Of a DNA stretch of 64,000 bases, positions 67 through 38,697 are shown piece by piece (position 1 is the first letter of the stretch; each line of letters starts with the position of its first letter). Source of the DNA: an uncultured cyanobacterium. GTDB taxonomy: Bacteria; Cyanobacteriota; Cyanobacteriia; Cyanobacteriales; CAWCAG01. The notes under the pieces are model-generated. The model had not been told where the DNA came from. It saw nothing but the letters and a program-made list of their open reading frames with translations, and did no database searches. The stretch is from contig CAWDOD010000007.1 of assembly GCA_963803805.1 (NCBI GenBank), positions 17,040-81,039 on the forward strand, given 5' to 3'. A program made the position numbers and the translations under genes.

Positions 67-3000
67 ATGATGAGCAATACTACATTTCTTCCTAACTATC
101 AAATCACAGAGCAAATTTACAATGGTAATAGAACTGTAGTTTATCGGGGGATTTGTGCTGATTCCCAAAAGCCTGTAATCATTAAACTACTCAAAAAAGC
201 ATACCCTACCTTTGCTGAACTAGTACAATTTCGCAATCAGTATTTAATAACTAAGAATATTCAGATAGAGGGCATTGTCCAACCTATTGCTTTAGAAAGT
301 TGTGGTAATGGTTTGGCTTTAATAATGGAAGATGATGGCAGTATTTCTCTGAGTGAAGAATTGAAAAGTAGGGCAGATCAGAGGATTTCCCTGGAAGAAT
401 TTTTGACCATTGCTATCAAGCTAACTAAAATTCTCGAAGGACTATACCACAATCGTATTATTCACAAAGATATTAAACCGGCTAATATTCTGATTCATCC
501 CCAAACTAAGCAAGTTAAGTTAATTGATTTTCGTATCGCCACTTTACTACCAAAAGAACAACAAGAAATCCAAAATCCAAACGTCTTAGAGGGAACCCTT
601 GCTTACATTTCTCCCGAACAAACTGGCAGGATGAATCGAGGTATTGACTATCGCAGTGATTATTATTCATTGGGAGTAACTTTTTATCAACTACTAAGTG
701 GAAAATTACCATATGAGAGTGATGATGTTATGGAATTGGTGCATTGTCATATTGCAAAAACGGCTTTGCCGTTAGGGAGGAGTGAGGAGGGAGGAGGGAG
801 CAGTAAGATTCCTGGAGTGGTTGAGGATATTGTGATGAAGTTGATGGCGAAGAATGCTGAAGATCGCTATCAGAGTGCTTTGGGGTTGAAATATGATTTG
901 CAAAAGTGCTGGCAGCAGTGGCAGGAAACGGGTGACATTGAGCCTTTTGAATTGGGAGAGAGGGATATTGGCGATCGCTTCCTTGTCCCCGAAAAACTCT
1001 ACGGTAGGGAAACCGAAGTTGCCCAATTACTTGCTACATTTGAACGGGTTGCCGTTGGGAAGGTAGAAATAGCCCTGGTGGCAGGATTTTCTGGCATCGG
1101 TAAAACTGCTGTTGTTAATGAAGTTCACAAGCCCATTGTGCGGCAAAGAGGTTATTTCATTAAGGGGAAATTTGACCAATTCAACCGTAACACTCCCTTT
1201 TCTGCCTTTGTTCAAGCTTTTCGCGACTTGATGAATCAATTACTATCAGAAAGCGAAAGTCAGCTTGCACAGTGGAAAACCGAAATCCTTAATGCTTTGA
1301 GAGAAAACGCCCAAGTTATTGTTGAAGTTCTTCCTGAATTAGAAAGTATCATCGGAAAACAATCTCCCTGTGCTGAATTATCTGGAAGTGCGGCTCAAAA
1401 TCGCTTCAATTTACTCTTTAGCAAATTTATCCAAATCTTCACAACTGCTGCTCATCCTCTTGTGCTGTTTCTTGATGACTTGCAATGGGCAGACTCAGCA
1501 TCTCTTAGTCTCATGAAATTGTTGGTGGGAGAAACCGAAACAGGATATTTATTAGTATTGGGAGCCTATCGTAACAATGAAGTCTCCCCCACTCATCCCT
1601 TGATGTTAACCTTAGACGAGATCAAAAAAGATCAGGCAGTTGTTAACACGATCACCCTAGCACCTCTGAGTAAATTAGGATTAAATCATCTCGTTGCCGA
1701 CACCCTTGGTTGCAATCTTGAGTTGGCATCCCCCTTAACGCAACTAGTGTATCAAAAAACCCAAGGCAATCCCTTCTTTGCAACTCAATTGCTCAAATCT
1801 CTCCATGAAGGAAAATGGCTTTATTTTAACCCAAAATCAGGGCATTGGCAGTGTGAAATGGTGTCAGTAGGACAACTATCTTTAACAGAGGATGTTGTCG
1901 AGTTTATGGTGACTCAGTTACAGAAGTTACCCCTCCTAACTCAAGAATTATTGAAATTAGCCGCTTGCATTGGTAATCAGTTTGATCTAGAAACCTTGGG
2001 AATTATTTCTGAGCAATCCCCCACAGAAACAGCCACGAATTTGTGGAAAGCCCTGCAAGAAGGCTTAGTGTTGCCTACCAATGAAGTATACAAGTTCTAT
2101 CAATCTGAGGAAAATGCGAAAGTAATAGCGAATTTAGAGCATCGTGCAGCAAACTATAAGTTTCTGCACGACAGGGTTCAGCAAGCCGCTTATTCTCTCA
2201 TTCCAGAAGATCAAAAACAAACTACCCATTATCAAATTGGACGACTTTTCTTAGCTAAAATCTCTCCAGAAGAGCGAGGAAAACGGATTTTTGAGATAGT
2301 CAATCATTTGAATTTGGGCTTACCTTTAATCAAGGAAGTTGAAGAAAAGACTGAACTAGCCAACTTGAATTTAGCCGCAGCTTGCAAAGCCAAAGCCGCA
2401 ACTGCTTACCCTGCGGCTATCATCTATCTCAATACAGGAATTGAACTACTACCAGCAGATGTGTGGCAACACCACTACCAACTAGCCTTAGATTATCACA
2501 ATCTGATTGCAGAAGTGACTTTTTTGAATGGTAACTTTCTGGAAATGCACCAGTGGATTGACATTGTACAGCAACAAAGCAGAAGCTTATTAGATAAGGT
2601 CGAAGTTTACAAAACGCTGATTTCTGCCAAGATCGCCCAACAAAAGCTTTTAGAAGCCATTGAAGTGGGTTTACAAGCCCTTTCCCTGTTGGGTGTACAC
2701 TTACCAATCAAACCAACAGATGAAGATATTCAACAAGCACTGAAGAAAACAAATGCTCTAATTCCTGCCACCGGGATTTCCTCGCTATTTTCTTTGCCTT
2801 CTATTACTAACCCTAAGATTTTGGCGACGGTGCAAATCACCTCTACTTTAGCACCAGCAGCCTATATGGTAGGCTCTGGAGTATTTTTACTGATTGTGTT
2901 AGTAGAAATTCGTTTATCCATTAAGTATGGTAATTCTCCCATGTCTGCGGTTGCCTATGGTCACTATGGTATTGTCTTGTGTGGCATAATCAATGATATT

Positions 3001-6000
3001 GATGCTGGGTATCAATTCGGCAGACTTGCTCTGCACTCGGCAGAGCAAGGTCATGGCAAAACAATGAAGGCGAAAATTGCCTTTATTTTCGGGACGCTAA
3101 TTTCACCCTGGAAAAATCATCCTCAAGAAACACTTAAACTCCTGCAAACTTGCTATCAAGATGCTCTGGAAGCGGGAAGTCCAGAGATCGCCGCTTTTTG
3201 CCGCTACCATGATGCACAATCTTCCTATGCCATCGGGCAAGAATTATTTGTCTTAAAAAACAAGCTTGCTCTTTATAGCCAGCAAATTCGTCAAATCAAA
3301 CAAAAATTACACCTCAACTGGAATGAGCTATTGCGCCAAGTAGTTCTTAATCTCCAAGGAGCTTCTGACAATCCCTGTTGCTTAACCGGAGAGGCTATTA
3401 ATGAAGAACACCTTCTCGCCCAATACCAAAAAACTCAAAATGTCTTGGGTCTTTACAGCTTACACTTACATAAGCTTATTTTGTGCTATTTGTTTAACCG
3501 AGATGCTGATGCTTTAAACCATGCTCAAGCTGCCACTCAATATATCAGTGGAGGAACAGCACAGATTATAGTACCTCTGTTAGCCTTTTATAGCGCACTA
3601 ATACATTTGCGTGTCTGGTCTAATTTATCAGAAACTGAACAGGAGCATACACTTAAAAAAGTAATTGCTGAGCGGGAGAAGTTGCAAAGGTGGGCAGATC
3701 ATGCACCGATGAACTTTCAGCACAAAGTTGATTTAGTTGCGGCTGAGGAATATCGGGTTTTAGGCAATAAAATAGAAGCAATGGAAATGTATGATCACGC
3801 CATTGCTGGGGCTAAAGAAAACGCCTACATCCAAGACGAGGCCTTAGCTAACGAACTAGCTGCTAAATTCTACCTTAATTGGGGGAAAGAAACTATCGCC
3901 GAAGCTTATCTCACCAAAGCTTACTACTGCTATGTTCGCTGGGGAGCCAAAGCTAAAACTGACCACCTCGAACAAACCTATTCCCAATTGTTGCGTCCGA
4001 TTTTCCAGCAAACAGTACAAGTAATTAATCCCTTGGAAACTTTGGCAAACTTTGCTGTTACTACTGTTCCAGCTTCGGTACAAACCAATACTACTACCAA
4101 TATTGATACGGCCCTAGATTTTGCTACTCTCCTCAAAGCTTCTCAAAGCCTGTCCGGGACTATTCAAATCAATGAATTGCTCCATCAACTGAGCAAAATA
4201 ATTTTGCAACACTCCGGGGGCGATCGCTGTGCCTTAATTCTCCCTGATAGGGAGGAAAGTTGGCAAGTACGAACCATTGCAACACCAGAAAATACCGAAC
4301 TATGTGCCGATCCCATTGAGGGTAATAGCAACCTACCTGTTAAGTTGATTCAGTATGTCCGAAATACTCAAGAAGTGGTCGTAATTAACAATTGTCAAAC
4401 CGACTTGCCGGTTATAGACGAGTATCTTAGTCAGCAACAACCCAAAAGTGTCCTCTGTTTACCGATCCTCAATCAGAGTCATTTAATTGGCATTCTGTAT
4501 TTAAAAAACCGCCAGACTAGTGGTGTCTTTACCCAAGAGCGCATCCTCATCCTCAACTTCCTTTGCACCCAAGCTGCTATTTCCATTGAAAACGCTCGTC
4601 TCTATCAAGATTTAGAAAACTATTCCCAAAACCTAGAGCAAATAGTAAAAGAGCGCACTACTGCCCTCCAAGAAAGAGAAACTCGCCTGCGGCTGGCCTT
4701 GAGTGCAGCTAACCAAGGGTTTTTCGATATGAATATACATACTGATGAAGCTATTGTTAGCCCAGAATATGCTCTCATGCTGGGGTATGAGCCAACAACA
4801 TTCCAAGAAACAGTCACCGACTGGCGTAGCCGCTTGCATCCAGAGGATCAAAAACGAGTGAGTAAAGCCTATCAGGACTATGAAGCTGGCAAAACTCCCC
4901 AGTACGAAGTGGAATTTCGTCAGCGTAGTCAGCAGGGAGAGTGGAAATGGATTCTTGCTGTGGGGAAATTTATTGAGTGGGATGCAAACGGAAATCCCAC
5001 CAGGCTTTTAGGAACTCATACTGATATTAGCGATCGCAAACGAGCAGAAATAGACCTGCAAAATTTAATTGAAGGAACTGCTGCTACCATAGGACAGGAC
5101 TTTTTTCCTGCCTTAGTTAAGTATATTGCCGAAGCATTAAATGTTGACTACGCTGTGGTCACTGAACTAGCGAATGACAACCTCCATACTCTAGCCTTTT
5201 GGGGCAATAATTCTTTGCAACAGACTTTCTCCTATCGTCCGGTTAATACCCCCTGCGCCCTAGCCTTACAACATGGCAAGTTTTGTTGTGATCAGTTGAT
5301 TCAAGAACATTTCCCTGGGGATATAGACTTAGCAGCAATGGAGGTAGAGAGTTATTTGGGTATTGCCCTAGGAGATACCAATGGTAAATCAATTGGCAAC
5401 TTGTGTATCCTTAGCAAACAGCCTATCCAAAATCCTCAAAGAGCAGAACAAATCCTGCGCGTCTTTGCTGCACGGGCTGCGGCTGAATTGGAGCGTCAGC
5501 GGACGCAGACATCATTAGAGGAACTCAACCAAGCTTTAGAAACCAAGGTAGTGGAACTACAAGCAGCCAAAGAACAAGCAGATAGTGCTAATCGGGCTAA
5601 AAGTACTTTTCTGGCCAACATGAGTCACGAACTACGTACACCTCTCAACGGCATCCTTGGTTATACTCAAATATTGCAGCAGGAAAGTATCTTAGAAGGT
5701 AATCAACTTAAAGGCATTCAAACCATCCATCAATGTGGTAGCCATCTCCTTGACTTGATCAACGATATCCTTGACTTGAGTAAAATCGAAGCCCAAAAAA
5801 TGGAGTTACAGCCCAGGGAAATAAATTTCTCCATTTTCTTAAACACCATAGTGGAAATGTTTCGCCTCAAAGCCCAACAAAAAGGAATTGATTTTATCTA
5901 TCAAGAATTACAACAACTTCCTAGTGTTATCTATGGTGACGAAAAGCGGTTGCGTCAAGTAATTATTAATCTCCTTGGCAATGCTATCAAATTCACTCTA

Positions 6001-6993
6001 CGGGGAAAGGTAACATTTTCTGTGGAAGTTCTAGCCCAGGAAGGGAACAATCCCCGCCAATTATCTCCTACCACCCTGCGGTTCCAAGTGCAAGACACAG
6101 GAGTAGGCATGAGTTCAGAACAACTAGAAAAAATCTTCCTCGCCTTTGAACAAGTGGGAGAACATAACCAAAAGCAAGAGGGAACAGGTTTAGGGTTAGC
6201 AATTTCCCAAAAATTGGTGAGGATGATGGATACACAGATTAAAGTTAATAGTGAGTTAGGACAAGGAAGTACATTTTGGTTTGAGGTATCCTTACCTGGT
6301 GGTTGGCAACAAAATAATCAAAGGTTCAACACGAGACAAAAGCACCCGGTTGGTTATCAAGGTAGAACTCGTAAAATTCTTATTATTGATGATCGCCCAG
6401 AAACCCTCGATATTATCAGCAATGTTTTGCAGCCCCTCAACTTTGTCATAGTCACTGCTGAAAATGGGCAACAGGGCTTAGAAACTGCCCTGCAAGAAAC
6501 TCCTGATTTGATGATTAGCGATATTAAAATGCCTGTAATGGATGGTTGGGAAATGATTTCTCAACTCAGGGAGTATAAGCAATTTAAAAAATTACCGATT
6601 CTTGTCATATCCGCTAGTGCGATGCTCAGGGATTGTCATCAAACTCAAGAATACGGTGCCACCGACTTTTTGCCTAAACCATTGGTAATAGAAGATTTGC
6701 TGGGTAAAATAGGAAATTACCTGGAATTAGAATGGCTCTACCAACAACAAGCAGCAAGGGCAATGGACTCCCCAGAAGTTGTCACTACAGCAATGGCGAT
6801 TCCTCATGGGGAAATATTAGAAAAACTGGATAATTTGGCTAAAAGTGGGCTTTTGTTCGATCTCACAGAAGAACTTAATTTAATTGTGGCTAGCAATGAA
6901 CAATTCACTCCTTTCTGCCAAAAAATACAGAAATGGGTTGATAAGTTTGACAGCAAGAAGATTCAGGCATTTCTAAGTTCCTATATTTCTTGA
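67..6993 (+). CDS. HstK-type multidomain sensor: N-terminal Ser/Thr protein kinase, P-loop NTPase (GFSGIGKT), TPR-like helical region, GAF, PAS, HisKA, HATPase, receiver, plus a ~120-aa C-terminal tail
   Basis: 2308-aa ORF. Kinase subdomain motifs present: VIIK, HKDIKPANI, DFR (a DFG variant), SPEQ. GAF motif: [14 protein letters not shown] repeat ending in DISDRKRAE. H-box [10 protein letters not shown]-boxes in NLLGNAIKF and GTGLGLAIS. Receiver motifs ILIIDD and ISDIKMP. Confidence 0.85.
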   Translation: MMSNTTFLPNYQITEQIYNGNRTVVYRGICADSQKPVIIKLLKKAYPTFAELVQFRNQYLITKNIQIEGIVQPIALESCGNGLALIMEDDGSISLSEELKSRADQRISLEEFLTIAIKLTKILEGLYHNRIIHKDIKPANILIHPQTKQVKLIDFRIATLLPKEQQEIQNPNVLEGTLAYISPEQTGRMNRGIDYRSDYYSLGVTFYQLLSGKLPYESDDVMELVHCHIAKTALPLGRSEEGGGSSKIPGVVEDIVMKLMAKNAEDRYQSALGLKYDLQKCWQQWQETGDIEPFELGERDIGDRFLVPEKLYGRETEVAQLLATFERVAVGKVEIALVAGFSGIGKTAVVNEVHKPIVRQRGYFIKGKFDQFNRNTPFSAFVQAFRDLMNQLLSESESQLAQWKTEILNALRENAQVIVEVLPELESIIGKQSPCAELSGSAAQNRFNLLFSKFIQIFTTAAHPLVLFLDDLQWADSASLSLMKLLVGETETGYLLVLGAYRNNEVSPTHPLMLTLDEIKKDQAVVNTITLAPLSKLGLNHLVADTLGCNLELASPLTQLVYQKTQGNPFFATQLLKSLHEGKWLYFNPKSGHWQCEMVSVGQLSLTEDVVEFMVTQLQKLPLLTQELLKLAACIGNQFDLETLGIISEQSPTETATNLWKALQEGLVLPTNEVYKFYQSEENAKVIANLEHRAANYKFLHDRVQQAAYSLIPEDQKQTTHYQIGRLFLAKISPEERGKRIFEIVNHLNLGLPLIKEVEEKTELANLNLAAACKAKAATAYPAAIIYLNTGIELLPADVWQHHYQLALDYHNLIAEVTFLNGNFLEMHQWIDIVQQQSRSLLDKVEVYKTLISAKIAQQKLLEAIEVGLQALSLLGVHLPIKPTDEDIQQALKKTNALIPATGISSLFSLPSITNPKILATVQITSTLAPAAYMVGSGVFLLIVLVEIRLSIKYGNSPMSAVAYGHYGIVLCGIINDIDAGYQFGRLALHSAEQGHGKTMKAKIAFIFGTLISPWKNHPQETLKLLQTCYQDALEAGSPEIAAFCRYHDAQSSYAIGQELFVLKNKLALYSQQIRQIKQKLHLNWNELLRQVVLNLQGASDNPCCLTGEAINEEHLLAQYQKTQNVLGLYSLHLHKLILCYLFNRDADALNHAQAATQYISGGTAQIIVPLLAFYSALIHLRVWSNLSETEQEHTLKKVIAEREKLQRWADHAPMNFQHKVDLVAAEEYRVLGNKIEAMEMYDHAIAGAKENAYIQDEALANELAAKFYLNWGKETIAEAYLTKAYYCYVRWGAKAKTDHLEQTYSQLLRPIFQQTVQVINPLETLANFAVTTVPASVQTNTTTNIDTALDFATLLKASQSLSGTIQINELLHQLSKIILQHSGGDRCALILPDREESWQVRTIATPENTELCADPIEGNSNLPVKLIQYVRNTQEVVVINNCQTDLPVIDEYLSQQQPKSVLCLPILNQSHLIGILYLKNRQTSGVFTQERILILNFLCTQAAISIENARLYQDLENYSQNLEQIVKERTTALQERETRLRLALSAANQGFFDMNIHTDEAIVSPEYALMLGYEPTTFQETVTDWRSRLHPEDQKRVSKAYQDYEAGKTPQYEVEFRQRSQQGEWKWILAVGKFIEWDANGNPTRLLGTHTDISDRKRAEIDLQNLIEGTAATIGQDFFPALVKYIAEALNVDYAVVTELANDNLHTLAFWGNNSLQQTFSYRPVNTPCALALQHGKFCCDQLIQEHFPGDIDLAAMEVESYLGIALGDTNGKSIGNLCILSKQPIQNPQRAEQILRVFAARAAAELERQRTQTSLEELNQALETKVVELQAAKEQADSANRAKSTFLANMSHELRTPLNGILGYTQILQQESILEGNQLKGIQTIHQCGSHLLDLINDILDLSKIEAQKMELQPREINFSIFLNTIVEMFRLKAQQKGIDFIYQELQQLPSVIYGDEKRLRQVIINLLGNAIKFTLRGKVTFSVEVLAQEGNNPRQLSPTTLRFQVQDTGVGMSSEQLEKIFLAFEQVGEHNQKQEGTGLGLAISQKLVRMMDTQIKVNSELGQGSTFWFEVSLPGGWQQNNQRFNTRQKHPVGYQGRTRKILIIDDRPETLDIISNVLQPLNFVIVTAENGQQGLETALQETPDLMISDIKMPVMDGWEMISQLREYKQFKKLPILVISASAMLRDCHQTQEYGATDFLPKPLVIEDLLGKIGNYLELEWLYQQQAARAMDSPEVVTTAMAIPHGEILEKLDNLAKSGLLFDLTEELNLIVASNEQFTPFCQKIQKWVDKFDSKKIQAFLSSYIS

Positions 6994-7067
6994 TTCATAG
7001 TTGCAGAATAAAAAAAGTCTTTTAAAAAAGAGCCAATCCTCATTCAAAATCAACATATACTGACACC

Positions 7068-10000
7068 GTGCTAGATTTTACTACTATCCTCAAAGCCTCT
7101 CAAAGCCTTTCTAGGATTATTCAACTAGATGAATTACTGCACCAACTTACCAACATTATTTTGCAAAACTCTGGGGGCGATCGCTGCGCTTTGATACTCC
7201 CTGATAGTGAGGGAAATTGGCAAGTAAGAACTATTGCCACACCAGAAACCACAGAACTATGTTCAGATTTCCTCGAAGGTAATAGCAACCTACCTGTTAA
7301 GTTGATTCAGTATGTGAAAAATAGCCAAGAAGTTGTAGTAATTGATGATTGCCAAACGGATTTGCCCGTTATTGATGAGTATATCAATCAGCAACAACCC
7401 AAAAGTGTCCTCTGTTTACCGATTCTCAATCAAGGACATTTAATTGGCATTCTGTATTTAAAAAATCGCCGGACTAGTGGTGTCTTTACCCAAGAGCGCA
7501 TCCTCATCCTCAACTTCCTTTGCACCCAAGCTGCCATTTCCCTCGAAAACGCCCGACTCTACAACCTTGAGAAATTAAAAACCCAGCAGTTAAGTCAGCT
7601 TAATCGCCGTCTCTCCTTCACTCAATTCTCCGTAGATAATTCTGCTGATGGCATCTTCTGGCTTCGTGACGATGCAAGTTTCTTTTATGCTAACAAAGCG
7701 GCTTGTGCCATGTTGGAATATTCCTTAGAGGAAATAAAGACATTTTCTGTATTTGATATTAACCCTGATTTTCCCCGTGAAAAATGGCCAGAACATTGGC
7801 AAGCTGTTAAAAAACAAGGAAGTTTGAGCCTGGAGACTCGTCATCGAGCCAAAAGCGGACTTATTTATCCTGTGGAAATTACTGTCAATTACTTGGAATT
7901 TGAGGGACAAGAATATAATTTTTCGCGGGTACGAGATATTAGTGAACGCAAACAAATAGAAGCTGATCTGCAACTAACTGAAGCTAGGGCAACAGCAGCT
8001 TTTGAACAAGCTACTGTTGGCTTTGCTGAGACAGATATCCAAACTCAAAAGTTTACTCGTGTCAATACGCTCTTTTGCCAAATGCTTGGCTATACAAGAG
8101 AAGAATTAGTAGAGATGACTTTTATTGATATAACCCATCCCGAAGATGGTGCTGCTTCCTGCCAAGCTATAGAGCAACTCTATTCGGGTAAAGTTGATAG
8201 CTTTGCCTTGGAAAAACGGTATGTACGTAAAGATGGAACTTTCTTTTGGGGGGAAGTAACTGTCTACCTAGTCAAATTACAGGGAGAAAAAGCTATCTAC
8301 AGCTTAGGGCTAATTCAAGATATCAGCGAGCGCAAACGGTTAGAAGAAGAACAGAAAAAACTCAATACCATCTTAGAAGCTAGTTCAGACTACATTGGTA
8401 TTGCTAATTCTCAAGGAAAAATTCTTTGGTTCAATACTACTTTCAAACAACTGTTCCCAGAACTAAATGAACAGGAACTTTACCAGCGCCATATCACCAA
8501 TTTTCATCCTCAGTGGGCTAATGAAATAATTTTCAACCAGGGATTTCCCACAGCAGTTCAGCATGGTACTTGGTTAGGGGAAGCAGCAGTTCTAGACTCC
8601 GCAGGAAGGGAGATACCCGTTTCCCTATTGCTGATTGCCCACAAATTTCCTCAAGGAGAAGTGGAATATTTTTCTACCATTATGCGAAATATCAGCGATC
8701 GCAAACAGGCTGAGGAGGCACTGAAGCAAAATCAGATTCACTTAGAGGCCTTGTTAAATAACATCCCTCAAATGATCTGGCTAAAAGATGCTGAGAGTCG
8801 TTTTATCGCCATTAATACGCCCTTTGCAAAGGCTTGCGGTTGTCCAGTATCTGAGATTTTTGGTAAAACAGATTATGATGTTTGGCCCTCAGAAATGGCT
8901 CAGGGATTTCGCGATGATGATTTTCAAGTTCTTGCATCAGGACAGCGTAAGGTGGTGGAAGAACAGTTCCTCGAACCGAATGGAGAAGTAGGATGGCTAG
9001 AAACAACCAAAACCCCCTTTAAAAATGCCCAGGGTGAATTTGCCGGAACTGTTGGCATTGCTGCGGATATTAGCGATCGCAAAAAGGCGGAATTAGAGCG
9101 GGAACAATATTTAACTCAACTAGCTCAACTCAACAAAGAATTAGAACAAGCTAACCAGCAACTAGCAGACTATTCCCAAACTCTCGAAGCTAGAGTTGCC
9201 AAACGCACTGCGGAACTACAAGCAGCCAAAGAACAAGCAGATAGTGCTAATCGGGCTAAAAGTACTTTTCTGGCCAACATGAGTCATGAACTACGTACAC
9301 CTCTCAACGGCATCCTTGGTTATACTCAAATATTGCAGCAGGAAAGTACCTTAGAAAGTAAGCAACTTAAAGGCATTAAAACCATCCATCAATGTGGCAG
9401 CCATCTTCTTGACTTGATCAACGATATCCTTGACTTGAGTAAAATCGAAGCCCAAAAAATGGAGTTACAGCCCAGGGAAATAAATTTCTCCATTTTCTTA
9501 AACACCATAGTGGAAATGTTTTGCCTCAAAGCCCAACAAAAAGGAATTGATTTTATCTATCAAGAATTACAGCAAATTCCTAGTGTTATCTATGGTGACG
9601 AAAAGCGGCTACGTCAGATACTCATCAATCTCCTTGGCAATGCTATCAAATTCACTTCGCGGGGAAAGGTGATATTTTCTGTAGAAGTTCTAACCCAAGC
9701 AAGAGAAAACCTTACAGAATTAGCCCCTACCACTCTGCGGTTCCAAGTGCAAGACACAGGAGTAGGCATGAGTTCAGAACAACTAGAAAAAATTTTCCTC
9801 GCCTTTGAACAAGTGGGAGAAAATAGCCAAAAGCAAGAGGGAACAGGTTTAGGGTTAGCAATTTCCCAAAAATTGGTGAGGATGATGGATACGCAGATTA
9901 AAGTTAATAGTGAGTTAGGACAAGGAAGTACATTTTGGTTTGAGGTATCCTTACCTGGTGGTTGGCTACAGGAGAAACAACGAATAGAAATTAAACAGAG

Positions 10001-10652
10001 AGTAATTACGGGGTATGAAGGTAGAACTCGTAAAATTCTCATCATTGATGATCGCCCAGAAACCCTCGATATTATCAGCAATGTTTTGAAGCCCCTCAAC
10101 TTTGTCATAGTCACTGCTGAAAATGGGCAACAGGGCTTAGAAACTGCCCTGCAAGAAACTCCTGATTTGATGATTAGCGATATTAAAATGCCTGTAATGG
10201 ATGGTTGGGAAATGATTTCTCAACTCAGGGAGTATAAGCAATTTAAAAAATTACCGATTCTTGTCATATCCGCTAGTGCGATGCTCAGGGATTGTCATCA
10301 AACTCAAGAATACGGTGCCACCGACTTTTTGCCTAAACCATTGGTAATAGAAGATTTGCTGGGTAAAATAGGAAATTACCTGGAATTAGAATGGCTCTAC
10401 CAACAACAAGCAGCAAGGGCAATGGACTCCCCAGAAGTTGTCACTACAGCAATGGCGATTCCTCATGGGGAAATATTAGAAAAACTGGATAATTTGGCTA
10501 AAAGTGGGCTTTTGTTCGATTTCACAGAAGAACTTAATTTAATTGTGGCTAGCAATGAACAATTCACTCCTTTCTGCCAAAAAATACAGAAATGGATTGA
10601 TAAGTTTGACAGCAAGAAGATTCGGACATTTCTACATTCACAGCTTCCTTAG
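7068..10652 (+). CDS. Hybrid sensor histidine kinase: GAF, several PAS/PAC, HisKA, HATPase, receiver, and the same C-terminal tail as the upstream gene
   Basis: 1194-aa ORF. The GAF domain resembles the upstream gene at about 85-90%. Three DISERK/DISDRK PAC-end motifs. The last ~560 aa are near-identical at nucleotide level to 5560..6993. Confidence 0.85.
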
Positions 10653-10774: not shown

Positions 10775-10805
10775 TTCCTTATTCCTTATTCCCTATTCCC
10801 TATCT
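10775..10805. repeat. STRR-like tandem heptamers (ttcctta / ttcccta)
   Basis: Four 7-nt units in intergenic DNA. Confidence 0.6.
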
Positions 10806-10814
10806 TTTGAATTC

Positions 10815-12404
10815 ATGAAAGACTTATTTGCCCGTGAAGCGATCGCTCAAATCCCTAAAATTCTTACCTTAATGGATTGCAACTGCCACAGCCCTACCTA
10901 TGGTTGCTTTGATTGCAATTTTTGGCAATATAAAATTATTGATTTTCCTAGTGGGATGTCTCAGGAGTTTGTTTGTGCCCCTCGCTTTAGCTTACCAAAC
11001 TCATGTAGAAAATAATCCTTTTTTCCAAGAAAAGGCCATTCCAATCTGGGTAGAAGCAGGTATTCTTTACGCTGCTAAAAGCAGCCACGCCGATGGTTCT
11101 TGTGATGACTATTTTCCTTTTGAAAGGGCTGGCGGGGCGGCAGCTTTTTCTTTGTTAGCTTGCCTAGAAAGCTATCAATTATTAGGATTAAAAAATGAGC
11201 AAGCTTTACAGTTTTTTGAACTTCGGGCTGATTGGTTAGCCCATCATCATGAAAGTGGTAGATTAACTAATCACCAAGCTTTAATTGTTTTATGTTTAGA
11301 GTTGCTTTCTCCTGTTTTAAATACTACTAAATGGGATCGGGCAAAGTAGAGCGTTTAGAGAAGGTTTTATCTTGGCAAAATCCTGAAGGTTGGTTCCAAG
11401 AATATGAAGGTTGTGATCCTGGCTATCATACTTTAACTATTTCTTGTTTAGCCAGAATTCACCAGCTACGCCCCGATCCTCGCTTGAAAGAAGCTTTAGT
11501 TAAAGCAGTTGATTTAGCGGCTCAATTTATCCATCCTGATGGTTCCTATGGAGGAGAATATACTAGTCGTAACACCTATAATTTCTTCCCCCATGGTTTT
11601 GAATTGGTGGGTAAATGGTATCGGTCAGCTTTAACTATTAATGATCAGTTTTTACAAGGTTTAGCTCAGGGTTTAGCTCCTTGTTATGCAGATGATCATA
11701 TTATTGGTCATCATACTTGGAATTATCTCTTAGCTTGGCAAGACTTTGTTTCTGAACGCCCAGCAATTAAACCAAGAAGTGAAGGGAGAATTTGGTATCC
11801 TAATGCCAAAATTTTAATCGATTGCCGTCGGGGTACAGAACTTTATTTAGCCTTGAATAAAGGAGGAGTATTTAAGTTTTTTCGTAATGGTAAATTAGTT
11901 ACTTCAGATACTCAATTTTCTCTCTTAGTTAATCAAGGTAGTAAGTTGAAAAATGCTGTTGCTCATTTGGTAGGCTCCTATGACATAAAAATTGAACCTG
12001 ATGATATTTCTATTCAAGGAGATTTAGGTTGGGCAAAACAAAAGCAAATGACTCCCCTTAATTTAATGATTTTGCGGGTAGTGATGTTAACCGTTGGGCG
12101 TTTCTTTCCTAATTTAATTCGTAAACTTTTACAAAAAGTGCTGATTACCGGTAAAAAAAGCGCTCCTTACCATTTTTCTCGGAAATTACGCTGGCAAGAT
12201 AGTTATTGGCAGGTTATAGATGAACTTAGTGGAGAATCTTGGGATGATTTAGAAAGTGTAGCCATTGGTGGTGATCAAACTTCTATTTATGTGGTTATGA
12301 GTCGTACTTATCAACAAGGACAACTTCAACCTTGGCAAGATTTTACCAAGGAAGTGAAACAACTTTCTGTTGGACAAAAGTTAAAAGTTGAGCGCAATAT
12401 TTGA
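10815..12404 (+). pseudogene. Single gene read across three overlapping ORFs (frame 0, then 1, then 0), with two compensating frameshifts. N-terminal Cys-rich motif (CNCHSPTYGCFDC) followed by alpha/alpha-toroid-like repeats (DGSCDDYFPF, QNPEGWF, DGSYGGEY); function unknown
   Basis: ORFs 10815..11015, 10900..11349 and 11331..12404 are contiguous in sense. Frame 0 is closed by TAA at 11328-30 just before the third ORF. The first shift lies in the CCCC run near 10978. The second lies in tgggatcggg near 11335. Confidence 0.5.
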
Positions 12405-12429
12405 TCAGGTAATAGGTAATAGGTAATGG

Positions 12430-13407
12430 GTGATTATGAATAAGAAGAGATTTATTTCTATAGTTGTTAGCGTGGCTATTTTGTGTATTATTTACTCAAA
12501 AATAGACTTGCCTCGCCTAATTGAAGTTTTCCAAAACTGTGACCCGGTTTGGATGGTTATTAGTTTAGGAATGGTTATTCCTTTAACCTTATTTACCTCT
12601 TGGCGTTTGCAACAATTAATGCCTGCGGGAAAAGGATTAGGGTTTCTAGAAGCTAATCGCTTAATTTTGGCAGCTAGTGTCCTTAACATGGTGCTTCCTT
12701 CTAAAATGGGAGATATTGCTAAAGCTTATTTTATGAAAGATAGAGGTCACTTAGAGGGAAGTTTAGCTTTATCTTTGGTAATTTTTGAGAAAGCTTGTGA
12801 TATGCTTTCTCTGTTATTGTGGTGTGTATTTGGTTTACTATTTTATGCGAACAAAGATACTTTATTTTGGTTAATGACTTGTGGGGTTGCTTTTGGTTTA
12901 GTTCTAGGAGTTATGCTCCTATCTTCTCAGAAATTTGCTCAATTATTCTTTATTTTAGCAATTAAGATAGCTCCCAAAAAAATCAAGCCCAAGCTAGAAA
13001 AAATGCAAGCATCATGGGTAGAAATGCACGACTATTTCTGGCGCGACAAAGTTCAACTAACTAAAATAACTGTTACTTCTATTTTTATTTGGTTCCTGCA
13101 TCTGTTGCAGATTTATTTCTTTACCTTAGCAATTCGCGCTGAGGTTCCTTTTCTTGTTAATCTCGCCCTCTCCCCTCTCTCAATTCTAGCCGGATTATTA
13201 CCCTTAACTTTCGCTGGTGTCGGAACCCGTGATGCGGCGATTATTTTATTTTATCAACCCTATATGAGCGAAGCAAAAGGTGCTGCATTAGGCTTACTTT
13301 GCACTTCTCGCTACTTCTTACCTGCAATCGGCGGTTTACCTTTCTTAGGACAGTTTTTAGCTACGGTGAAAAAGGTGAAAAAAGAGGAAGTGATAAGTAA
13401 TGGCTAA
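12430..13407 (+). CDS. Flippase-like / lysylphosphatidylglycerol-synthase TM-domain family (UPF0104) integral membrane protein
   Basis: 325 aa with about 8 hydrophobic helices. The motif PSKMGDIAKAYF is typical of the family. It lies immediately downstream of the disrupted gene. Confidence 0.55.
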   Translation: MIMNKKRFISIVVSVAILCIIYSKIDLPRLIEVFQNCDPVWMVISLGMVIPLTLFTSWRLQQLMPAGKGLGFLEANRLILAASVLNMVLPSKMGDIAKAYFMKDRGHLEGSLALSLVIFEKACDMLSLLLWCVFGLLFYANKDTLFWLMTCGVAFGLVLGVMLLSSQKFAQLFFILAIKIAPKKIKPKLEKMQASWVEMHDYFWRDKVQLTKITVTSIFIWFLHLLQIYFFTLAIRAEVPFLVNLALSPLSILAGLLPLTFAGVGTRDAAIILFYQPYMSEAKGAALGLLCTSRYFLPAIGGLPFLGQFLATVKKVKKEEVISNG

Positions 13408-16019: not shown

Positions 16020-18743
16020 GTGCTGATATCTCAAAAAAAGCTGCAAAAATTACCACCCTTACCTCTGCGAGTTTTACTGGTATTACCTTTTTTAGTTCAA
16101 ATTTGTGCCATTGTTGGTTTGACAGGATGGCTTTCTTTTCGCAATGGACAAAATGCGGTTAGTGATCTGGCAACGGAACTGCAAAAAGAAGTTCAATCTC
16201 AAGTAGAACATTATCTTGATGATTACTTAGCCCTACCTATACAAATTAATCACATTAATTTAGAAGCAGCTAAATTAGACTTGCTTAACTTAGAAGACTT
16301 TTCCCGTACCGGGCAGTACTTTTGGCAGCAAATGCAGGTGTTTGATGTCGGCTACATTAGTTATGCCACCCTGAAAGGAGAGTTTATTGGTATTGAACGG
16401 TTAGATAATGGGGAAGTTTTGATTAATGAAGTACCTTTATCTACCCAGGGGAAACTCTACGCTTACAAAACAGATGCAGAAGGGAATCGTACTCAACAAG
16501 TTAAAGTTACAACTGGTTATGATCCTCGCCTTGAAGCTTGGTATGCCGATGCTGTAGAAGCAGGCAAGCCTGTTTGGAGTGAGATTTATCAGTGGGAATA
16601 TAAACCGGAGGTTTTATCTATTTCTTCTAGCTATCCTGTTTATGATGAGAGGCAAAATCTTCAAGGAGTTATTGGCGTTGATTTAATTCTTTCTCAGATC
16701 AATGATTTTCTCAGTAATCTAGAGTTAGATCGTTCCGGGCAGACCTTTATTTTAGAACGCAATGGTTTATTGGTAGCTAGTTCAGCTACCGAAAAGTCTT
16801 TTGATTTGGTGGATGGTAAAGTAACCAGAAAGAAGGCTATTGATAGTCAAGATCTTATTGTTAATTCTACTGTTCAATATTTACAAAAACATTTTGGTCA
16901 ATTAGCCGCCATTAAAAAGCCAGCCAACTTAGTATTGTATGTTGATGAGCAACAACAATTTCTGCAAGTTCTTCCTTATCAAGATTCCTTTGGTTTAGAT
17001 TGGTTGGTGATTACAGTAATACCTGAATCAGATTTTGCAGATCAGGTGAATACTAATACCCGTACCACCATTTTGCTCTGTTTAGGAGCTTTAATTGTCG
17101 CTATTGTGATCAGCATTTTAACCTCTCGCTTGATCAGTAAACCGATCCGACAATTGAGCGGTGCTAGCAAAGCTATAGCTAATGGTAAATTGGATCAAAA
17201 AGTTGAGGTGGGTAGAGTTGATGAATTAGGTGTTTTAGCCGGTTCATTTAATAAAATGGCCCAGCAACTACACGATTCTTTCGCTGATTTAGCCAAAAAT
17301 AATGAAGATTTAGAAAAAAAGGTACAGTTAAGAACTACAGCATTAGAAAAATCTGAAGCTCTACAAAAACAATTAAACCAACAACTAGAAAAAAGAGTCC
17401 AGCAACGCACCTCAGAACTGGAAAAAGCCAAAAAGAGAATGCAATTTATGGCTTTGCATGATCCTTTAACTAATTTACCTAACCGGACTCTATTTTTAGA
17501 AAAGCTAGCAGATTGTATTTATAGCCAAAAAGAGTCAAATTATTTATTCGCTGTACTATTTTTAGACTGCGATCGCTTCAAAGTTATTAACGACTCTCTA
17601 GGACATTCAGCAGGGGATCAGTTATTAATTATCCTCACAAGTCGTTTAATTTCTTGTTTGCGCCCTGGAGATATTATCGCTCGTTTAGGGGGAGATGAGT
17701 TTGCTATCCTCTTAAATAAATTAGAAGGTATTGAAGAAGCGATCGCCGTTGCCCAAGCAATTCAAGAAACCACCAACCAACCTTGTCAACTTAACCACTA
17801 CCAGGTATTTATGAACTTCAGCATCGGTATTTGTCCTGGTTGGGAATATGAACAACCAGAACATTTATTGAGGGATGCTGATACAGCTATGTATGCTGCC
17901 AAAGCTTCTGGTAAAGGTGCTTTTAAGGTATTTGACAATGAGATGCACGCTAAGGCAGTAGATTTATTAAACTTAGAAACTGACTTACGGCAGGCGATAG
18001 AAAGGGAAGAGTTTTTAGTTTACTATCAACCAATTATTTGTCTTGACACAGGTAAGATACAAGCTTTTGAAGCCCTAGTACGCTGGCAGCATCCCCAACG
18101 GGGTTTCGTTTCTCCAGAACAGTTTATTCCCCTAGCAGAAGAAACTGGTTTGATTATTCCTTTAGGTATGTTGGTATTGAGGGAAGCCTGTCAGCAACTC
18201 CGGCAATGGCAAAAACTATTTTCACAAGAACACCCCCTTACCATGAGTGTAAATCTTTCGGTTAAACAGTTTTCTCAACCAGATTTATTAGGACAAATTG
18301 ATCAAGTCCTTAAAGAAACTGATTTAGATAGTCGTAGTTTGAAGCTAGAAATTACCGAAAGCGCGATTATGGGCAACCCAGAAGATGCCCTGGCTATCCT
18401 TAATCAAATTAAAGAACGTCAAATCCAGTTAAGTATTGATGATTTTGGTACAGGTTATTCTTCTTTTAGTTACTTACACCGCCTACCTTTCGACACCTTA
18501 AAAATTGATCGTTCTTTTGTCAGCCAACTAGATGAAGTGAAAAAACATCGAGAAATTGTTGAGGCAATTGCAACTTTAGCCCAAAAGTTAAAAATGCAAG
18601 TCATTGCTGAAGGAATAGAAACAGAACAACAATTAGCACATTTAAGAAGTTTAGGTTGCGATTTTGGTCAAGGTTGGTTTTTTTCTAAGCCTTTATCCCA
18701 AGAATCGGCTGAGAAGATGTTGTTGAATTCTCCTAAGTGGTAA
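16020..18743 (+). CDS. Membrane sensor diguanylate cyclase/phosphodiesterase: periplasmic Cache-like domain, HAMP, coiled coil, GGDEF, EAL
   Basis: 907 aa. Two TM segments flank a roughly 300-aa extracytoplasmic domain. RLGGDEFAIL (GGDEF) and EALVRW (EAL) motifs are present. Confidence 0.85.
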   Translation: MLISQKKLQKLPPLPLRVLLVLPFLVQICAIVGLTGWLSFRNGQNAVSDLATELQKEVQSQVEHYLDDYLALPIQINHINLEAAKLDLLNLEDFSRTGQYFWQQMQVFDVGYISYATLKGEFIGIERLDNGEVLINEVPLSTQGKLYAYKTDAEGNRTQQVKVTTGYDPRLEAWYADAVEAGKPVWSEIYQWEYKPEVLSISSSYPVYDERQNLQGVIGVDLILSQINDFLSNLELDRSGQTFILERNGLLVASSATEKSFDLVDGKVTRKKAIDSQDLIVNSTVQYLQKHFGQLAAIKKPANLVLYVDEQQQFLQVLPYQDSFGLDWLVITVIPESDFADQVNTNTRTTILLCLGALIVAIVISILTSRLISKPIRQLSGASKAIANGKLDQKVEVGRVDELGVLAGSFNKMAQQLHDSFADLAKNNEDLEKKVQLRTTALEKSEALQKQLNQQLEKRVQQRTSELEKAKKRMQFMALHDPLTNLPNRTLFLEKLADCIYSQKESNYLFAVLFLDCDRFKVINDSLGHSAGDQLLIILTSRLISCLRPGDIIARLGGDEFAILLNKLEGIEEAIAVAQAIQETTNQPCQLNHYQVFMNFSIGICPGWEYEQPEHLLRDADTAMYAAKASGKGAFKVFDNEMHAKAVDLLNLETDLRQAIEREEFLVYYQPIICLDTGKIQAFEALVRWQHPQRGFVSPEQFIPLAEETGLIIPLGMLVLREACQQLRQWQKLFSQEHPLTMSVNLSVKQFSQPDLLGQIDQVLKETDLDSRSLKLEITESAIMGNPEDALAILNQIKERQIQLSIDDFGTGYSSFSYLHRLPFDTLKIDRSFVSQLDEVKKHREIVEAIATLAQKLKMQVIAEGIETEQQLAHLRSLGCDFGQGWFFSKPLSQESAEKMLLNSPKW

Positions 18744-21793: not shown

Positions 21794-23467
21794 ATGCTCT
21801 TGGAAAATCGTTACCAAGTCCTCCGTGCTTTGGGTCAAGGGGGTTTTGGTGAAACATTTTTAGCTGAAGATACTCATTTGCCTTCGGGCCGCCGTTGTGT
21901 TATCAAACAGCTAAAACCAGTTAACAATGACCCTAAAATTTATCAGGTGATCAAAGATCGCTTTCAAAGAGAAGCTGTAATGCTTGAAGAATTGGGAGCT
22001 GCAAATCAGCAAATTCCCAGTTTATACGCTTATTTTGAAAGTGATAATCAATTTTATCTCGTACAAGAATATATTGAAGGCACTACCTTAAGCAACCATC
22101 TACAAACTCACGGAACCCTTAGTGAAAGTTCTCTTCGAGAAATTCTCGTCAATCTTTTGCCTGTTTTAGATTATATCCACAGTAAGCGTATTATTCATCG
22201 GGACATCAAACCAGACAACATTATTTTGCGTAATGGGGATAGATTACCAGTTTTAATTGACTTTGGTGCAGTCAAAGAAGCAATGGGAACTTTGGTTTCT
22301 CCTTCTGGCCATGCAAACAGTTCCATTGTCATTGGTACACCGGGTTTTATGTCCTCAGAACAAAATGCAGGCAGGCCAGTATTTTCCAGTGACTTGTATA
22401 GTTTAAGCTTAACAGCCATTTACGGCTTGACCGGTAAAACACCCCAAGATTTAGAAAGCGATCCTCAAACAGGAGAGGTGATTTGGCGCAAGTATGCACC
22501 GACAGTAAGCCCTAGCTTAGCAGGTATTTTAGACAAAGCACTCCAATTTCATCCGCGCGATCGCTACAACAGTGCTTCAGAAATGCTAGCAGCACTCCAA
22601 GGCAATTCTCAATTTCCCCCTACTATTATTCCTCCTCCCCAGCCCTCTAACAATTTTGCATCGACGGAAGTGTCTATGCCTCCCGGTAGCGGAGGATATC
22701 CCCAGCAACCACCAACTGTAGTTTCAACATCCCCCCAATACTATCCCTCACCACCAGCAAACCAGCCTCATGCTTCGGGTGAGTGGCAAAAGGCAGTGAT
22801 TACAGGAGGAGTAGTGGGCTTGTTTATTTTGGCAGCCAGTGTGATTGCTGTACCAAGGTTGACAGAAGAGCAAGAAACAGCAAGCGAAACTACAGAGTCT
22901 CCGGTGGAAACGGTTGTAGAAGAGGAAGAGACACCTAAGCAAAATGAAGAACAAGCTGGTGTTCCTAGTACTTCACAAGCTAACAAAGTTGTACCACCAT
23001 CAACACAACAACCTGCACCAACATCAGTTCCTACACAAGCAGTCACATCTTCTGCACCATCTATTTCTCAACAAGAGGCCGTTAACTTAGTAAATAGCTG
23101 GCTGCAAGCAAAGCGGGAACTTTTTTCTCCTCCCTACAACCGACAAGCTGGGGCAGCATTGCTAACAGGTAAAGCTTATCAAGACAACATCAGAAAAACT
23201 GACGGTACTGAAAGCTCTGTAGATTGGCTAGAAAACAATAATTCCTACTATGAATACGGTGTACAAAATATCGATAACGTCGAAAGATTTGTCGCTAATG
23301 GCGACAATGCAACGGTTGAAGTTTTAGTAACAGAAGAACGAACCTTGTATAACAGTCGGGGAAGCATTGATCCTAATAACACAGCTTTAGATACAAATTT
23401 AGTTCGCTATAGTTTGCAGTTTGATGGCAGCAGTTGGAAGATTTCTGATTACAAAGTAATTAATTAA
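21794..23467 (+). CDS. Ser/Thr protein kinase with Pro-rich linker, one TM helix and a C-terminal DUF4101-like domain
   Basis: Kinase motifs GQGGFGETF, VIK, HRDIKPDNI, DFGAVK and GTPGFMSSEQ. TM segment VITGGVVGLFILAASVIAV. The C-terminal domain resembles ARC6/kinase-associated DUF4101. Confidence 0.85.
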   Translation: MLLENRYQVLRALGQGGFGETFLAEDTHLPSGRRCVIKQLKPVNNDPKIYQVIKDRFQREAVMLEELGAANQQIPSLYAYFESDNQFYLVQEYIEGTTLSNHLQTHGTLSESSLREILVNLLPVLDYIHSKRIIHRDIKPDNIILRNGDRLPVLIDFGAVKEAMGTLVSPSGHANSSIVIGTPGFMSSEQNAGRPVFSSDLYSLSLTAIYGLTGKTPQDLESDPQTGEVIWRKYAPTVSPSLAGILDKALQFHPRDRYNSASEMLAALQGNSQFPPTIIPPPQPSNNFASTEVSMPPGSGGYPQQPPTVVSTSPQYYPSPPANQPHASGEWQKAVITGGVVGLFILAASVIAVPRLTEEQETASETTESPVETVVEEEETPKQNEEQAGVPSTSQANKVVPPSTQQPAPTSVPTQAVTSSAPSISQQEAVNLVNSWLQAKRELFSPPYNRQAGAALLTGKAYQDNIRKTDGTESSVDWLENNNSYYEYGVQNIDNVERFVANGDNATVEVLVTEERTLYNSRGSIDPNNTALDTNLVRYSLQFDGSSWKISDYKVIN

Positions 23468-26947: not shown

Positions 26948-26980
26948 TAAGTAATAAGTGATAAGTAATAAGTGATAAGT
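26948..26980. repeat. STRR-like tandem heptamers (taagtaa / taagtga)
   Basis: About 4.5 units. Confidence 0.6.
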
Positions 26981-27516: not shown

Positions 27517-27751
27517 GTGATGATGAGGTATAAGCTGTCAGGAATTTAGATCACCTCACTTCTATAGGTGATCTCACCTCTTTTCTAGAGTAAACAACCC
27601 TAAAAAGTAGAAGTAAAGCATCTGCTTAATATACTGAATTTGCTCCACCTTCAATAACTTTGAGTAATTCCTCTACAATAAGTTGAATACTCACATCTTT
27701 AGAGAACTCCAATAAATAAAATATCCTCACCAAGTATAAGATTTTAGCAAC

Positions 27752-27812
27752 TAGCAACTAGCAACTAGCTTATCGCTTTTGGATAAGTTTTTTCTCAGTT
27801 CTCTCTTACTTT
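27752..27812. repeat. Copy B of a ~50-nt dispersed hairpin-containing repeat (agcaactagcttatcgctttt-gataagt ... ttctctctta), preceded by a (tagcaac)x3 heptamer array
   Basis: About 90% identical to 18766..18822. Central palindrome cttatc / gataag. Confidence 0.6.
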
Positions 27813-27937: not shown

Positions 27938-28095
27938 CCTGACGGCTTAAATGTGATATTATAACTCCCGTCGGTTCTAACGGGGAGCAGTCGTTAGAGG
28001 TAAGGGGGAAAGTTCGGTGTAAACCCGGCACTGTCCCGCAACTGTGAAGAAACTAGGTAGATAAGGTTTCTAAGTCAGAATGCCCGCCGATTGTT
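27938..28095 (+). ncRNA. Cobalamin (B12) riboswitch
   Basis: Core AGGGGGAAAGTTCGGTGTAAACCCGGCACTGTCCCGCAACTGTGA matches the B12-box consensus (GGTG..AA.CC ... GCCACTG..CCCGCAACTGT). 3' element AGTCAGAATGCCCGCC. Lies upstream of hupE/ureJ-cobW. Confidence 0.7.
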
Positions 28096-28303
28096 ACAGC
28101 TTAAAATCAAGATTCATCTGCGAGGTACGGATGTTACAACAAGTAAATCAATCTTACGAGAAAAATCTTAAGCTCAGATACAGATTTTCCTCAAGTAATT
28201 CCTAAATTGCTGGTTAGTGAACTTGTTTAGCCATAAACGAAACTTTGTAAAAATGAATTAAAACAGTTGCTGTAACAAGAAACAACTGTCTCTTTTATTA
28301 AGT

Positions 28304-29011
28304 ATGGAGATGTCCAATCTCTATTACTTATCAACGACCAATTTATTTACTAAAAATATGAACAAACAAACAAAATTTCCTGGGCTAACTCAACTTTCAC
28401 CTTTAGTTATCGCCACAATCTTATTAGCATTATTCAACTGTCTATTAATAGCTAATCCTGCCGCAGCACACCATCCCTTTGGTGGTACAACTCCCACCAA
28501 TTTATCACAAGGATTTCTTTCTGGTTTAGGGCATCCAGTTATTGGTATAGACCACTTTATTTTTACCGTTGCTATTGGCTTATTAGCTGCTTTAAGAAAA
28601 CCCCAAGGTATATTCATTGCCGTTGCTTTTATCTTAGCTACTCTAGGGGGAACAGGACTACATTTAATGGGTTTAGATTTGCCTTTTCCTGAAACAGCGA
28701 TCGCCACTTCTGTTTTAGTTATTGGCTTGATGTTGGGATTAAAAAACAATCTCAATTTAATCGCTATAGTAGTTGCCGCAGCATTAGGGGGAATATTCCA
28801 CGGTTACGCCTACGGAGAAGCCATTGTTGGGGCAGAAATGACTCCTTTAATTGCTTACTTAACAGGCTTTGCTTCCATTCAATTAGTAGTAGCCTTAACC
28901 GCCTACCAAATCAGTACAATCATGTTCAATAAATTTGCTGAACAATTTGAATTGTATTTGCGCTTTGCTGGCTTTACTATCTTAGGTATGGGAACAGCTT
29001 TTCTCTTTTAA
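28304..29011 (+). CDS. hupE: HupE/UreJ-family metal (cobalt/nickel) transporter
   Basis: Signal peptide, then HHPFGG. About 6 TM helices with conserved His (GHPVIGIDHF, FHGYAYGEA). The true start is probably the internal Met near 28358. Confidence 0.75.
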   Translation: MEMSNLYYLSTTNLFTKNMNKQTKFPGLTQLSPLVIATILLALFNCLLIANPAAAHHPFGGTTPTNLSQGFLSGLGHPVIGIDHFIFTVAIGLLAALRKPQGIFIAVAFILATLGGTGLHLMGLDLPFPETAIATSVLVIGLMLGLKNNLNLIAIVVAAALGGIFHGYAYGEAIVGAEMTPLIAYLTGFASIQLVVALTAYQISTIMFNKFAEQFELYLRFAGFTILGMGTAFLF

Positions 29012-38641: not shown

Positions 38642-38655
38642 GAAGGGATGTACTG

Positions 38656-38684
38656 CTATTAGCCATTAGCTATTAGCCATTAGC
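38656..38684. repeat. STRR-like tandem heptamers (ttagcca / ttagcta)
   Basis: Four units between convergent genes. Confidence 0.55.
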
Positions 38685-38697
38685 TTTTAAGTATTAG

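Follow-up and report, generated by a model that had tools for sequence, protein, structure and literature searches.

The tufA and tufB genes are the classic textbook case of bacterial paralogues homogenised by gene conversion. That paralogous genes of bacteria evolve in concert through interlocus gene conversion is established (survey PMC6053082). The cbSTKIII "dual protein kinases" (HstK/Alr2258 family) of filamentous cyanobacteria combine a Ser/Thr kinase, GAF domains and a histidine kinase, and domain shuffling within this family has led to the gain and loss of PAS domains and of extra GAF domains (PMC2176072). Two of its members, Alr0709 and Alr0710 (Pkn40/Pkn41) of Anabaena PCC 7120, are adjacent, co-transcribed tandem duplicates that are ~75% similar (PMC2176072). 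Here we describe a tandem kinase pair in a stretch of 64,000 nucleotides (nt) from an uncultured cyanobacterium (GenBank assembly GCA_963803805.1, contig CAWDOD010000007.1, positions 17,040 to 81,039 of the forward strand; hereafter the window). Gene A (67..6993, + strand) encodes 2308 amino acids (aa) and gene B (7068..10652, + strand) encodes 1194 aa from a GTG start. The two genes share a GAF domain and a C-terminal output module composed of the HisKA and HATPase_c domains, a receiver (REC) and a tail. We conclude that this output module has probably been homogenised by interlocus gene conversion between old tandem paralogues.

With an N-terminal Ser/Thr kinase, at least one GAF domain, and C-terminal HisKA and HATPase_c domains, gene A has the composition that defines the cbSTKIII/HstK family; gene B, which is without a Ser/Thr kinase domain, is not itself a member. 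Unlike the situation at Alr0709/Alr0710, the second gene is truncated here and the outputs are mosaic, and no conversion is mentioned for the Anabaena pair (PMC2176072). As in bacterial concerted evolution, the paralogues are in part closer to each other than to their orthologues, and they show mosaic tracts, divergent edges and islands. Unlike in those cases, the effect is confined here to one module of a multidomain signalling protein, and the remaining domains are non-homologous between the two genes. We searched the literature for gene conversion among paralogous histidine kinases and found nothing specific, an absence that proves little. What we see at this locus is a well-resolved case of familiar processes within a known family, with no new mechanism or protein family involved.

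Mosaic identity between genes A and B

Alignment of A and B with BLASTN and MAFFT yielded exactly two homologous blocks, both ungapped, and the rest of A is unlike B (Table 1). The second block ends 18 nt before both stop codons, and those last 18 nt are only 50% identical. Sequences 3' of the two stop codons are unrelated to each other, and the GTG start of gene B is the exact left edge of its homology with A. A first-pass annotation of this DNA had described the second gene as a partial copy of the 3' part of the first, which agrees with the two blocks and with the extension of one of them to near both stop codons. It had placed the first gene at 4090-6993; the open reading frame (ORF) is real, but it starts at 67, ~4 kb upstream of 4090. 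Between the first GAF domain (GAF1) and HisKA the two genes have unrelated sensor content, with PAS_3 and a second GAF domain (GAF2) in A and four PAS domains in B. This content had been called wholly different, as it is, but the "one PAS" assigned to A was incomplete, as A also has GAF2.

Identity along the alignment is patchy, as had been claimed: it is sharply non-uniform by segment, and identical blocks are present. Block 2 consists of three output tracts separated by two islands, and there are 21 differences in 1246 nt of the tracts as compared to 58 in 177 nt of the islands (Fisher P = 3e-39). The 431-nt identical run exceeds the maximum of 218 obtained in 20,000 permutations, and the longest run without a synonymous change spans 182 codons (permutation P = 1.6e-4 for block 2 and 1e-5 for both blocks). 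The two parts of block 1 also differ: the 5' part (4111-4420, 310 nt) is 81.6% identical and the 3' part (4421-4577, 157 nt) is 94.3% identical (Fisher P = 1.2e-4). Clustering of the A-B differences is beyond chance. The first-pass figure of 85-90% identity with short identical blocks for the GAF domain matches the 85.5-85.6% that we measured, with perfect runs of 38, 36, 29, and 63 nt. The figure of more than 95% for HisKA-HATPase does not hold, for positions 5560-6360 are 91.0% identical with both islands inside, and 97.5-98.3% identical outside the islands. Receiver and tail are near-identical, as proposed, but the tail is about 94 aa long and not 120.

A single-copy relative and segmental divergence

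Synonymous divergence (dS) between A and B, computed segment by segment with the Nei-Gojobori method, jumps between neighbouring segments. It is 0.79 in the 5' GAF and 0.20 in the 3' GAF (5.7% differences). Along the output module it is 0.052 in tract 1, 0.70 in island 1, 0.044 in tract 2, saturated in island 2, and 0.016 in the receiver and tail tract.

A scan of one genome per species yielded one close locus, L001. Cluster and contig look-ups added two further carriers (L017 and L018), which are metagenome-assembled genomes (MAGs) labelled Spirulinaceae cyanobacterium, and the three loci are mutually 99.9% identical. Each carries gene X (P0125/P0126), one uninterrupted gene of 2884 aa; the L001 copy has one frameshift. 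Gene X resembles the A/B locus in having the same N-terminus as A, GAF1, the output module, the tail, and the downstream genes. The latter encode a 529-aa protein of unknown function and an LPG_synthase_TM protein, and this downstream region is ~90% identical at the nt level (10799-13383 vs 18810-21393 of L017), as compared to ~80% for the kinase genes. The search for a single-copy counterpart at the orthologous locus, which had been suggested as a check, was thus successful, with downstream synteny kept. Scans of genome and metagenome contigs with gene B returned no relative closer than the Spirulinaceae MAG species, and no second genome with the A-B pair was found among genome contigs, metagenome contigs, and the protein collection.

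Using X as the outgroup, we classified sites as A=B≠X, A=X≠B, or B=X≠A. The counts in this order are 63/5/3 in output tract 1, 32/1/3 in tract 2, 128/4/2 in tract 3, and 23/5/4 in the 3' GAF. Almost all derived states in the output tracts are common to A and B, and no tract has more than 8 discordant sites. Island 1 (11/13/15) is a three-way star in which A, B, and X are equidistant. In island 2 (4/5/17) B groups with X and A is the odd one out, and in the 5' GAF (19/17/33) B is nearer X. In the islands and the 5' GAF, A and B are no closer to each other than either is to the gene of the other species. Islands 1 and 2 are the least conserved segments against X as well.

Over the tracts, synonymous sites included, each paralogue therefore resembles the other more than it does the orthologue, and adjacent segments are discordant in phylogeny beyond chance, with a star or a (B,X) grouping in the islands. 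Discordant phylogenies of tracts and islands, together with a tract dS far below the dS to X, point to conversion over an old duplication. The duplication and the split from the X lineage are of about the same age.

This age bears on the alternative offered by the first-pass annotation, in which a very recent duplication of the GAF-to-end segment was followed by rapid domain shuffling and near-identity reflects young age. Output modules that are 94.4% identical, a receiver and tail that are 98.9% identical, and the frequency of domain indels at linker motifs in this kinase family (PMC2176072) would all be in keeping with it. A young duplication, however, predicts uniformly low dS, and the divergence of A from B in the 5' GAF (0.79), island 1 (0.70), and island 2 (saturated) matches that of the orthologue; nor do A and B pair most closely with one another in these three segments. 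With unconverted parts that have diverged to the level of an orthologue from another species, the locus gives no support to a very recent duplication. The dS values by segment and the site patterns largely refute this explanation, which we consider improbable.

Identity of the output could also be ascribed to purifying selection on an identical protein product, without recombination, and the receiver and tail proteins do differ at only 5 of 204 residues. Over the 182 codons without a synonymous change, however, dS to X is ~0.5-1.2, as it is in the low-dS tracts in general, which shows that synonymous sites can change freely in these stretches. Protein-level selection cannot freeze synonymous sites, and the synonymous data refute an account by selection only, which is hardly credible.

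Extent and course of the probable conversion

The gene conversion suggested by the first-pass annotation is borne out by the dS jumps between adjacent segments and by the discordant outgroup patterns. Its description as ongoing is not, because the tracts already differ by 1.1-2.5%, and one episode with patchy repair would fit as well. It is possible, though less likely than not, that the module was replaced only once, by one long heteroduplex with patchy mismatch repair or by one recombinational swap. The three output tracts are alike in residual divergence (2.5%, 1.7%, and 1.1%; tract 1 vs tract 3, P = 0.085), which is in keeping with a single replacement. The greater divergence of the 3' GAF tract (5.7%, dS 0.20) argues the other way and suggests at least one separate, older event; conversion in this tract looks older than in the output tracts.

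An error of assembly or polishing, whether a repeat collapse or duplication or the erasure of real differences by multi-mapped reads, is another conceivable source of near-identity. The gene next to the pair (10814-12404) has two indels, one of +1 and one of -1, which suggest indel errors in the assembly. On the other side, both kinase ORFs are intact with 79 in-frame differences, flanking and sensor sequences are unique to each copy, and the limits of homology fall at domain linkers and at the start codon of B. Polishing erases small differences only, so the tracts would be highly similar in any case. We regard an artefact as very improbable.

We propose that A and B are old tandem paralogues, A being a dual Ser/Thr-His kinase and B an N-terminally truncated GAF-PAS4 hybrid histidine kinase of the same origin. 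After the split from X, conversion would have overwritten one copy with the other, over ~1.25 kb of transmitter, receiver, and tail and over ~160 nt within the 3' GAF; the repeats lie 3.66 kb apart, and RecA-type homologous recombination is the probable mechanism. The HATPase surface loop and the HATPase-REC linker, both short and fast-evolving, would have escaped conversion and kept the old divergence, as would the outer edges of the homologous region, namely the 5' GAF and the final 18 nt ahead of the stop codon. Established knowledge of recombination would account for both kinds of escape: the outer edges would have stayed diverged because conversion needs flanking homology, and the most diverged internal patches would have been kept because mismatches block heteroduplex extension. 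In-frame gain and loss of domains at the linker or the PAS-end motifs would then have left A and B with complementary sensor subsets. The two differently gated kinases may pass phosphate through near-identical receivers and tails, presumably to the same downstream partner.

Several points weigh against conversion as set out here. The pair is present in one genome only and there is one close outgroup species, which bears on the number, direction, and timing of events, and the output tracts are already 1.1-2.5% different, which bears on whether conversion is ongoing. The outlier position of A in island 2 and the 5' GAF could stem from a third paralogue elsewhere in the genome. The comparison relies solely on the assembly, and polishing may have erased a few real differences in the tracts. 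Dating is blurred by the dS to X, which is ~0.8 (0.75-0.9) in the kinase as compared to 0.34 in the adjacent 529-aa gene; different synonymous rates, later exchange of the flanking genes between lineages, and input from an unseen paralogue are possible causes of this gap.

A further point against comes from a related tandem array. Locus L019 of another cyanobacterial MAG (GCA_964451245.1, CAYVGU010000066.1, 1-8552) contains three tandem genes for a histidine kinase, receiver, and tail, with PAS, GAF, or CHASE sensors, followed by a fourth receiver/histidine kinase gene. It is like the A/B locus in that the same output and tail stand behind different sensors, and its protein P0010, with GAF, histidine kinase, receiver, and tail, is like a B without PAS domains. 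This trio indicates that tandem arrays with swapped sensors recur in the dual-kinase family. Unlike those of A and B, its outputs are only 72-75% identical at the nt level and are without homogenisation. Tandem arrays of this kind are therefore not homogenised as a rule, and homogenisation is particular to the A/B locus.

Sensor arrangement and polarity of the rearrangement

Gene X encodes, in order, a Ser/Thr kinase, AAA_16, GAF1, PAS, PAS_4, PAS_3, GAF_2, PAS_3, GAF, HisKA, HATPase, REC, and the tail. BLAST comparison resolves A into residues 1-1517, 1796-1942, and 2229-2884 of X, and B into residues 1352-1647 of X, two PAS domains without an X counterpart, and residues 1639-1814 and 2405-2884 of X. 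Only GAF1 and the output are common to A and B, and their sensor sets are non-overlapping subsets of the series in X. X holds homologues of PAS1 and PAS4 of B and of PAS_3 and GAF2 of A. It is unlike A and B in being one gene with its sensors in series, in having an extra GAF_2 and PAS_3, and in lacking PAS2 and PAS3 of B. The sensory modules had been described as diverged; they do differ, but as non-overlapping subsets of a contiguous domain series in X, with breakpoints in linker or PAS-end motifs.

The PAS-end motif is a 39-nt sequence that encodes DISDRK, holds a HIP1 site (GCGATCGC), and recurs at every PAS boundary (Table 1). PAS-domain indels in A or B relative to X break inside this motif. 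The other breakpoint site is a conserved signalling-helix linker, which joins GAF1 directly to HisKA in more basal members (P0010, P0014, P0019).

Two routes to the present arrangement are possible. An X-like giant gene may have undergone partial tandem duplication followed by reciprocal domain losses. Alternatively, a canonical gene with the N-terminal part, GAF, linker, and output and a truncated copy of it may each have received a different sensor insert, X being a secondary recombinant or collapse; stand-alone truncated copies of this sort are found, such as P0010 in L019. Several steps are needed on either route. Where B groups with X (island 2 and the 5' GAF), the pattern is slightly in favour of a duplication before the split and a subsequent collapse in X; island 1 has the star pattern.

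A further family member lies in L020 (6477-15175; contig of ERZ25072724, 4.78x), a low-coverage assembly in which a single long gene has many frameshifts. It contains the A-type GAF2 twice and B-type PAS domains in a different order, and it shows rampant sensor shuffling.

Catalytic motifs and the C-terminal tail

All kinase, ATPase, H-box, N/G1/G2, and receiver motifs of gene A are intact. The Ser/Thr kinase contains VIIK, HKDIKPANI, DFR, and SPE on motif inspection, and the AAA_16/nSTAND P-loop, with Walker A (GFSGIGKT) and Walker B (FLDDLQW), is that of a STAND NTPase. The H-box reads SHELRTP and the receiver has its DD, D, and K residues. The motifs of a hybrid histidine kinase (H-box, N/G1/G2, receiver Asp pocket, and the Lys including FLPKP) are all present and are identical in A and B, with Response_reg matches at E values of 6e-24 and 2e-24 in the two genes. 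From these catalytic motifs, A and B are predicted hybrid histidine kinases. In the Ser/Thr kinase of A, the DFR motif (~aa 153, nt ~523-540) stands in place of DFG or DFS in relatives (IDFRIA vs IDFGIA/IDFSIA).

Gene B is without the Ser/Thr kinase and STAND parts. The public protein collection contains an identical protein of 1194 aa (P0001, encoded on a 275,716-nt contig); the best full-length match after it in a search of this collection is 46% identical.

The tail is conserved across the dual-kinase family in two sequence flavours with invariant P, G, and I residues. Its AlphaFold model is a four-helix unit (predicted local distance difference test score, pLDDT, ~85-90) joined to the receiver by a ~16-residue disordered linker. 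The tail had no Pfam match at E ≤10, no PDB sequence match, and no Foldseek match in PDB reaching E 0.001. We considered and rejected an HPt domain: there is no Pfam match, the HPt of YojN is matched only at E 6.2 by Foldseek, and no His is conserved. The tail is typical of the dual-kinase family, not peculiar to this locus, and not an HPt.

Genomic setting

The spacer between A and B (6994..7067, + strand) is 74 nt long, A/T-rich, and unrelated to the sequence past the stop codon of B. As this spacer contains no terminator and no convincing promoter, co-transcription of A and B is likely. Two minus-strand ORFs inside B (7725..7973 and 9614..10114) are without a counterpart in A and were treated as spurious. 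Rfam and tandem-repeat scans found nothing within the A-B locus. The window has 30 HIP1 octamers and 39.8% GC, and is cyanobacterial in style.

Downstream of the pair, 10814-12404 is the homologue of the intact 529-aa gene of the X locus, with an extra T near 10976 and a missing G near 11345. The 369 nt between the two indels are still open in the frame of the relative, and the indels are either compensating frameshifts or assembly errors. Elsewhere in the window, a cobalamin riboswitch (27955-28105, + strand; Rfam RF00174, 46 bits) precedes the ORF at 28304..29011. Short intergenic heptanucleotide tandem repeats, similar to the short tandemly repeated repetitive (STRR) sequences of cyanobacteria, occur at 26948-26980, 27745-27769, 38655-38702, and 62605-62635. 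Other annotated genes are listed at the end of Table 1.

Table 1. Domains of genes A and B, segments of A-B homology, and other coding features of the window.
Feature	Position (nt)	Counterpart in gene B (nt)	Strand	Remarks
Pkinase (gene A)	97-873		+	aa 11-269; Pfam, E 2e-32
AAA_16/STAND NTPase (gene A)	994-1557		+	aa 310-497; AAA_16 E 9e-43, nSTAND6 1.6e-8
Helical region (gene A)	between AAA_16 and GAF1		+
GAF1 (gene A)	4171-4587		+	aa 1369-1507; Pfam, E 1e-24 (two stretches)
PAS_3 (gene A)	4756-5019		+	aa 1564-1651; Pfam
GAF2 (gene A)	5098-5490		+	aa 1678-1808; E 4e-9
HisKA (gene A)	5596-5793		+	aa 1844-1909; E 2e-21
HATPase_c (gene A)	5935-6294		+	aa 1957-2076; E 6e-26
REC/Response_reg (gene A)	6376-6708		+	aa 2104-2214; Pfam
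Tail (gene A)	6709-6990		+	~94 aa, after receiver
GAF (gene B)	7125-7544		+	Pfam
PAS x4 (gene B)	~7605-7955, 7965-8339, 8355-8708, 8730-9086		+	Pfam
HisKA (gene B)	9255-9452		+	Pfam
HATPase_c (gene B)	9594-9953		+	Pfam
REC (gene B)	10035-10367		+	Pfam
Tail (gene B)	10368-10649		+	same tail as A
PAS-end motif copies	5023-5061, 7935-7973, 8319-8357, 8688-8726, 9066-9104		+
Block 1 (GAF1 of A)	4111-4600	7068-7557	+	offset 2957; 85.6% over 4111-4590
Block 2 (HisKA, HATPase, REC, tail)	5553-6975	9212-10634	+	offset 3659, no indels, 94.4%
Output tract 1	5553-5949		+	97.5% identity
Island 1	5950-6075	9609-9734	+	76.2%; HATPase_c loop after N-box
Output tract 2	6076-6307		+	98.3% identity
Island 2	6308-6358	9967-10017	+	45.1%; HATPase-REC linker
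Output tract 3 (receiver and tail)	6359-6975		+	98.9%; 7 differences/617 nt
Longest perfect run, 431 nt	6431-6861	10090-10520	+	most of REC and first part of tail
dCache-HAMP-GGDEF-EAL protein	16020-18743
Ser/Thr kinase with ARC6-like IMS domain	21794-23467
WD40 protein	25524-26939		-
REC-GerE response regulator	49146-49856		-
Class II tRNA synthetase with C-terminal KTSC domain	51004-52722

Implications for cyanobacterial signalling

The locus offers a clear natural case of concerted evolution acting on one module of a bacterial signalling protein: transmitter, receiver, and tail are homogenised and the sensor arrays are non-homologous. It also shows the sites at which PAS and GAF domains are gained and lost in frame, namely the DISDRK PAS-end motif with its HIP1 site and the signalling-helix linker. 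Tentatively, and with some doubt, a giant multi-sensor kinase may have been split by partial tandem duplication, its complementary sensor halves being kept by reciprocal domain loss (subfunctionalisation), while selection-favoured conversion would keep the receiver and the four-helix tail identical for one shared partner. If selection does maintain this identity, the pair would represent a wiring of many sensors to one output, the opposite of the insulation that usually follows duplication of two-component paralogues.

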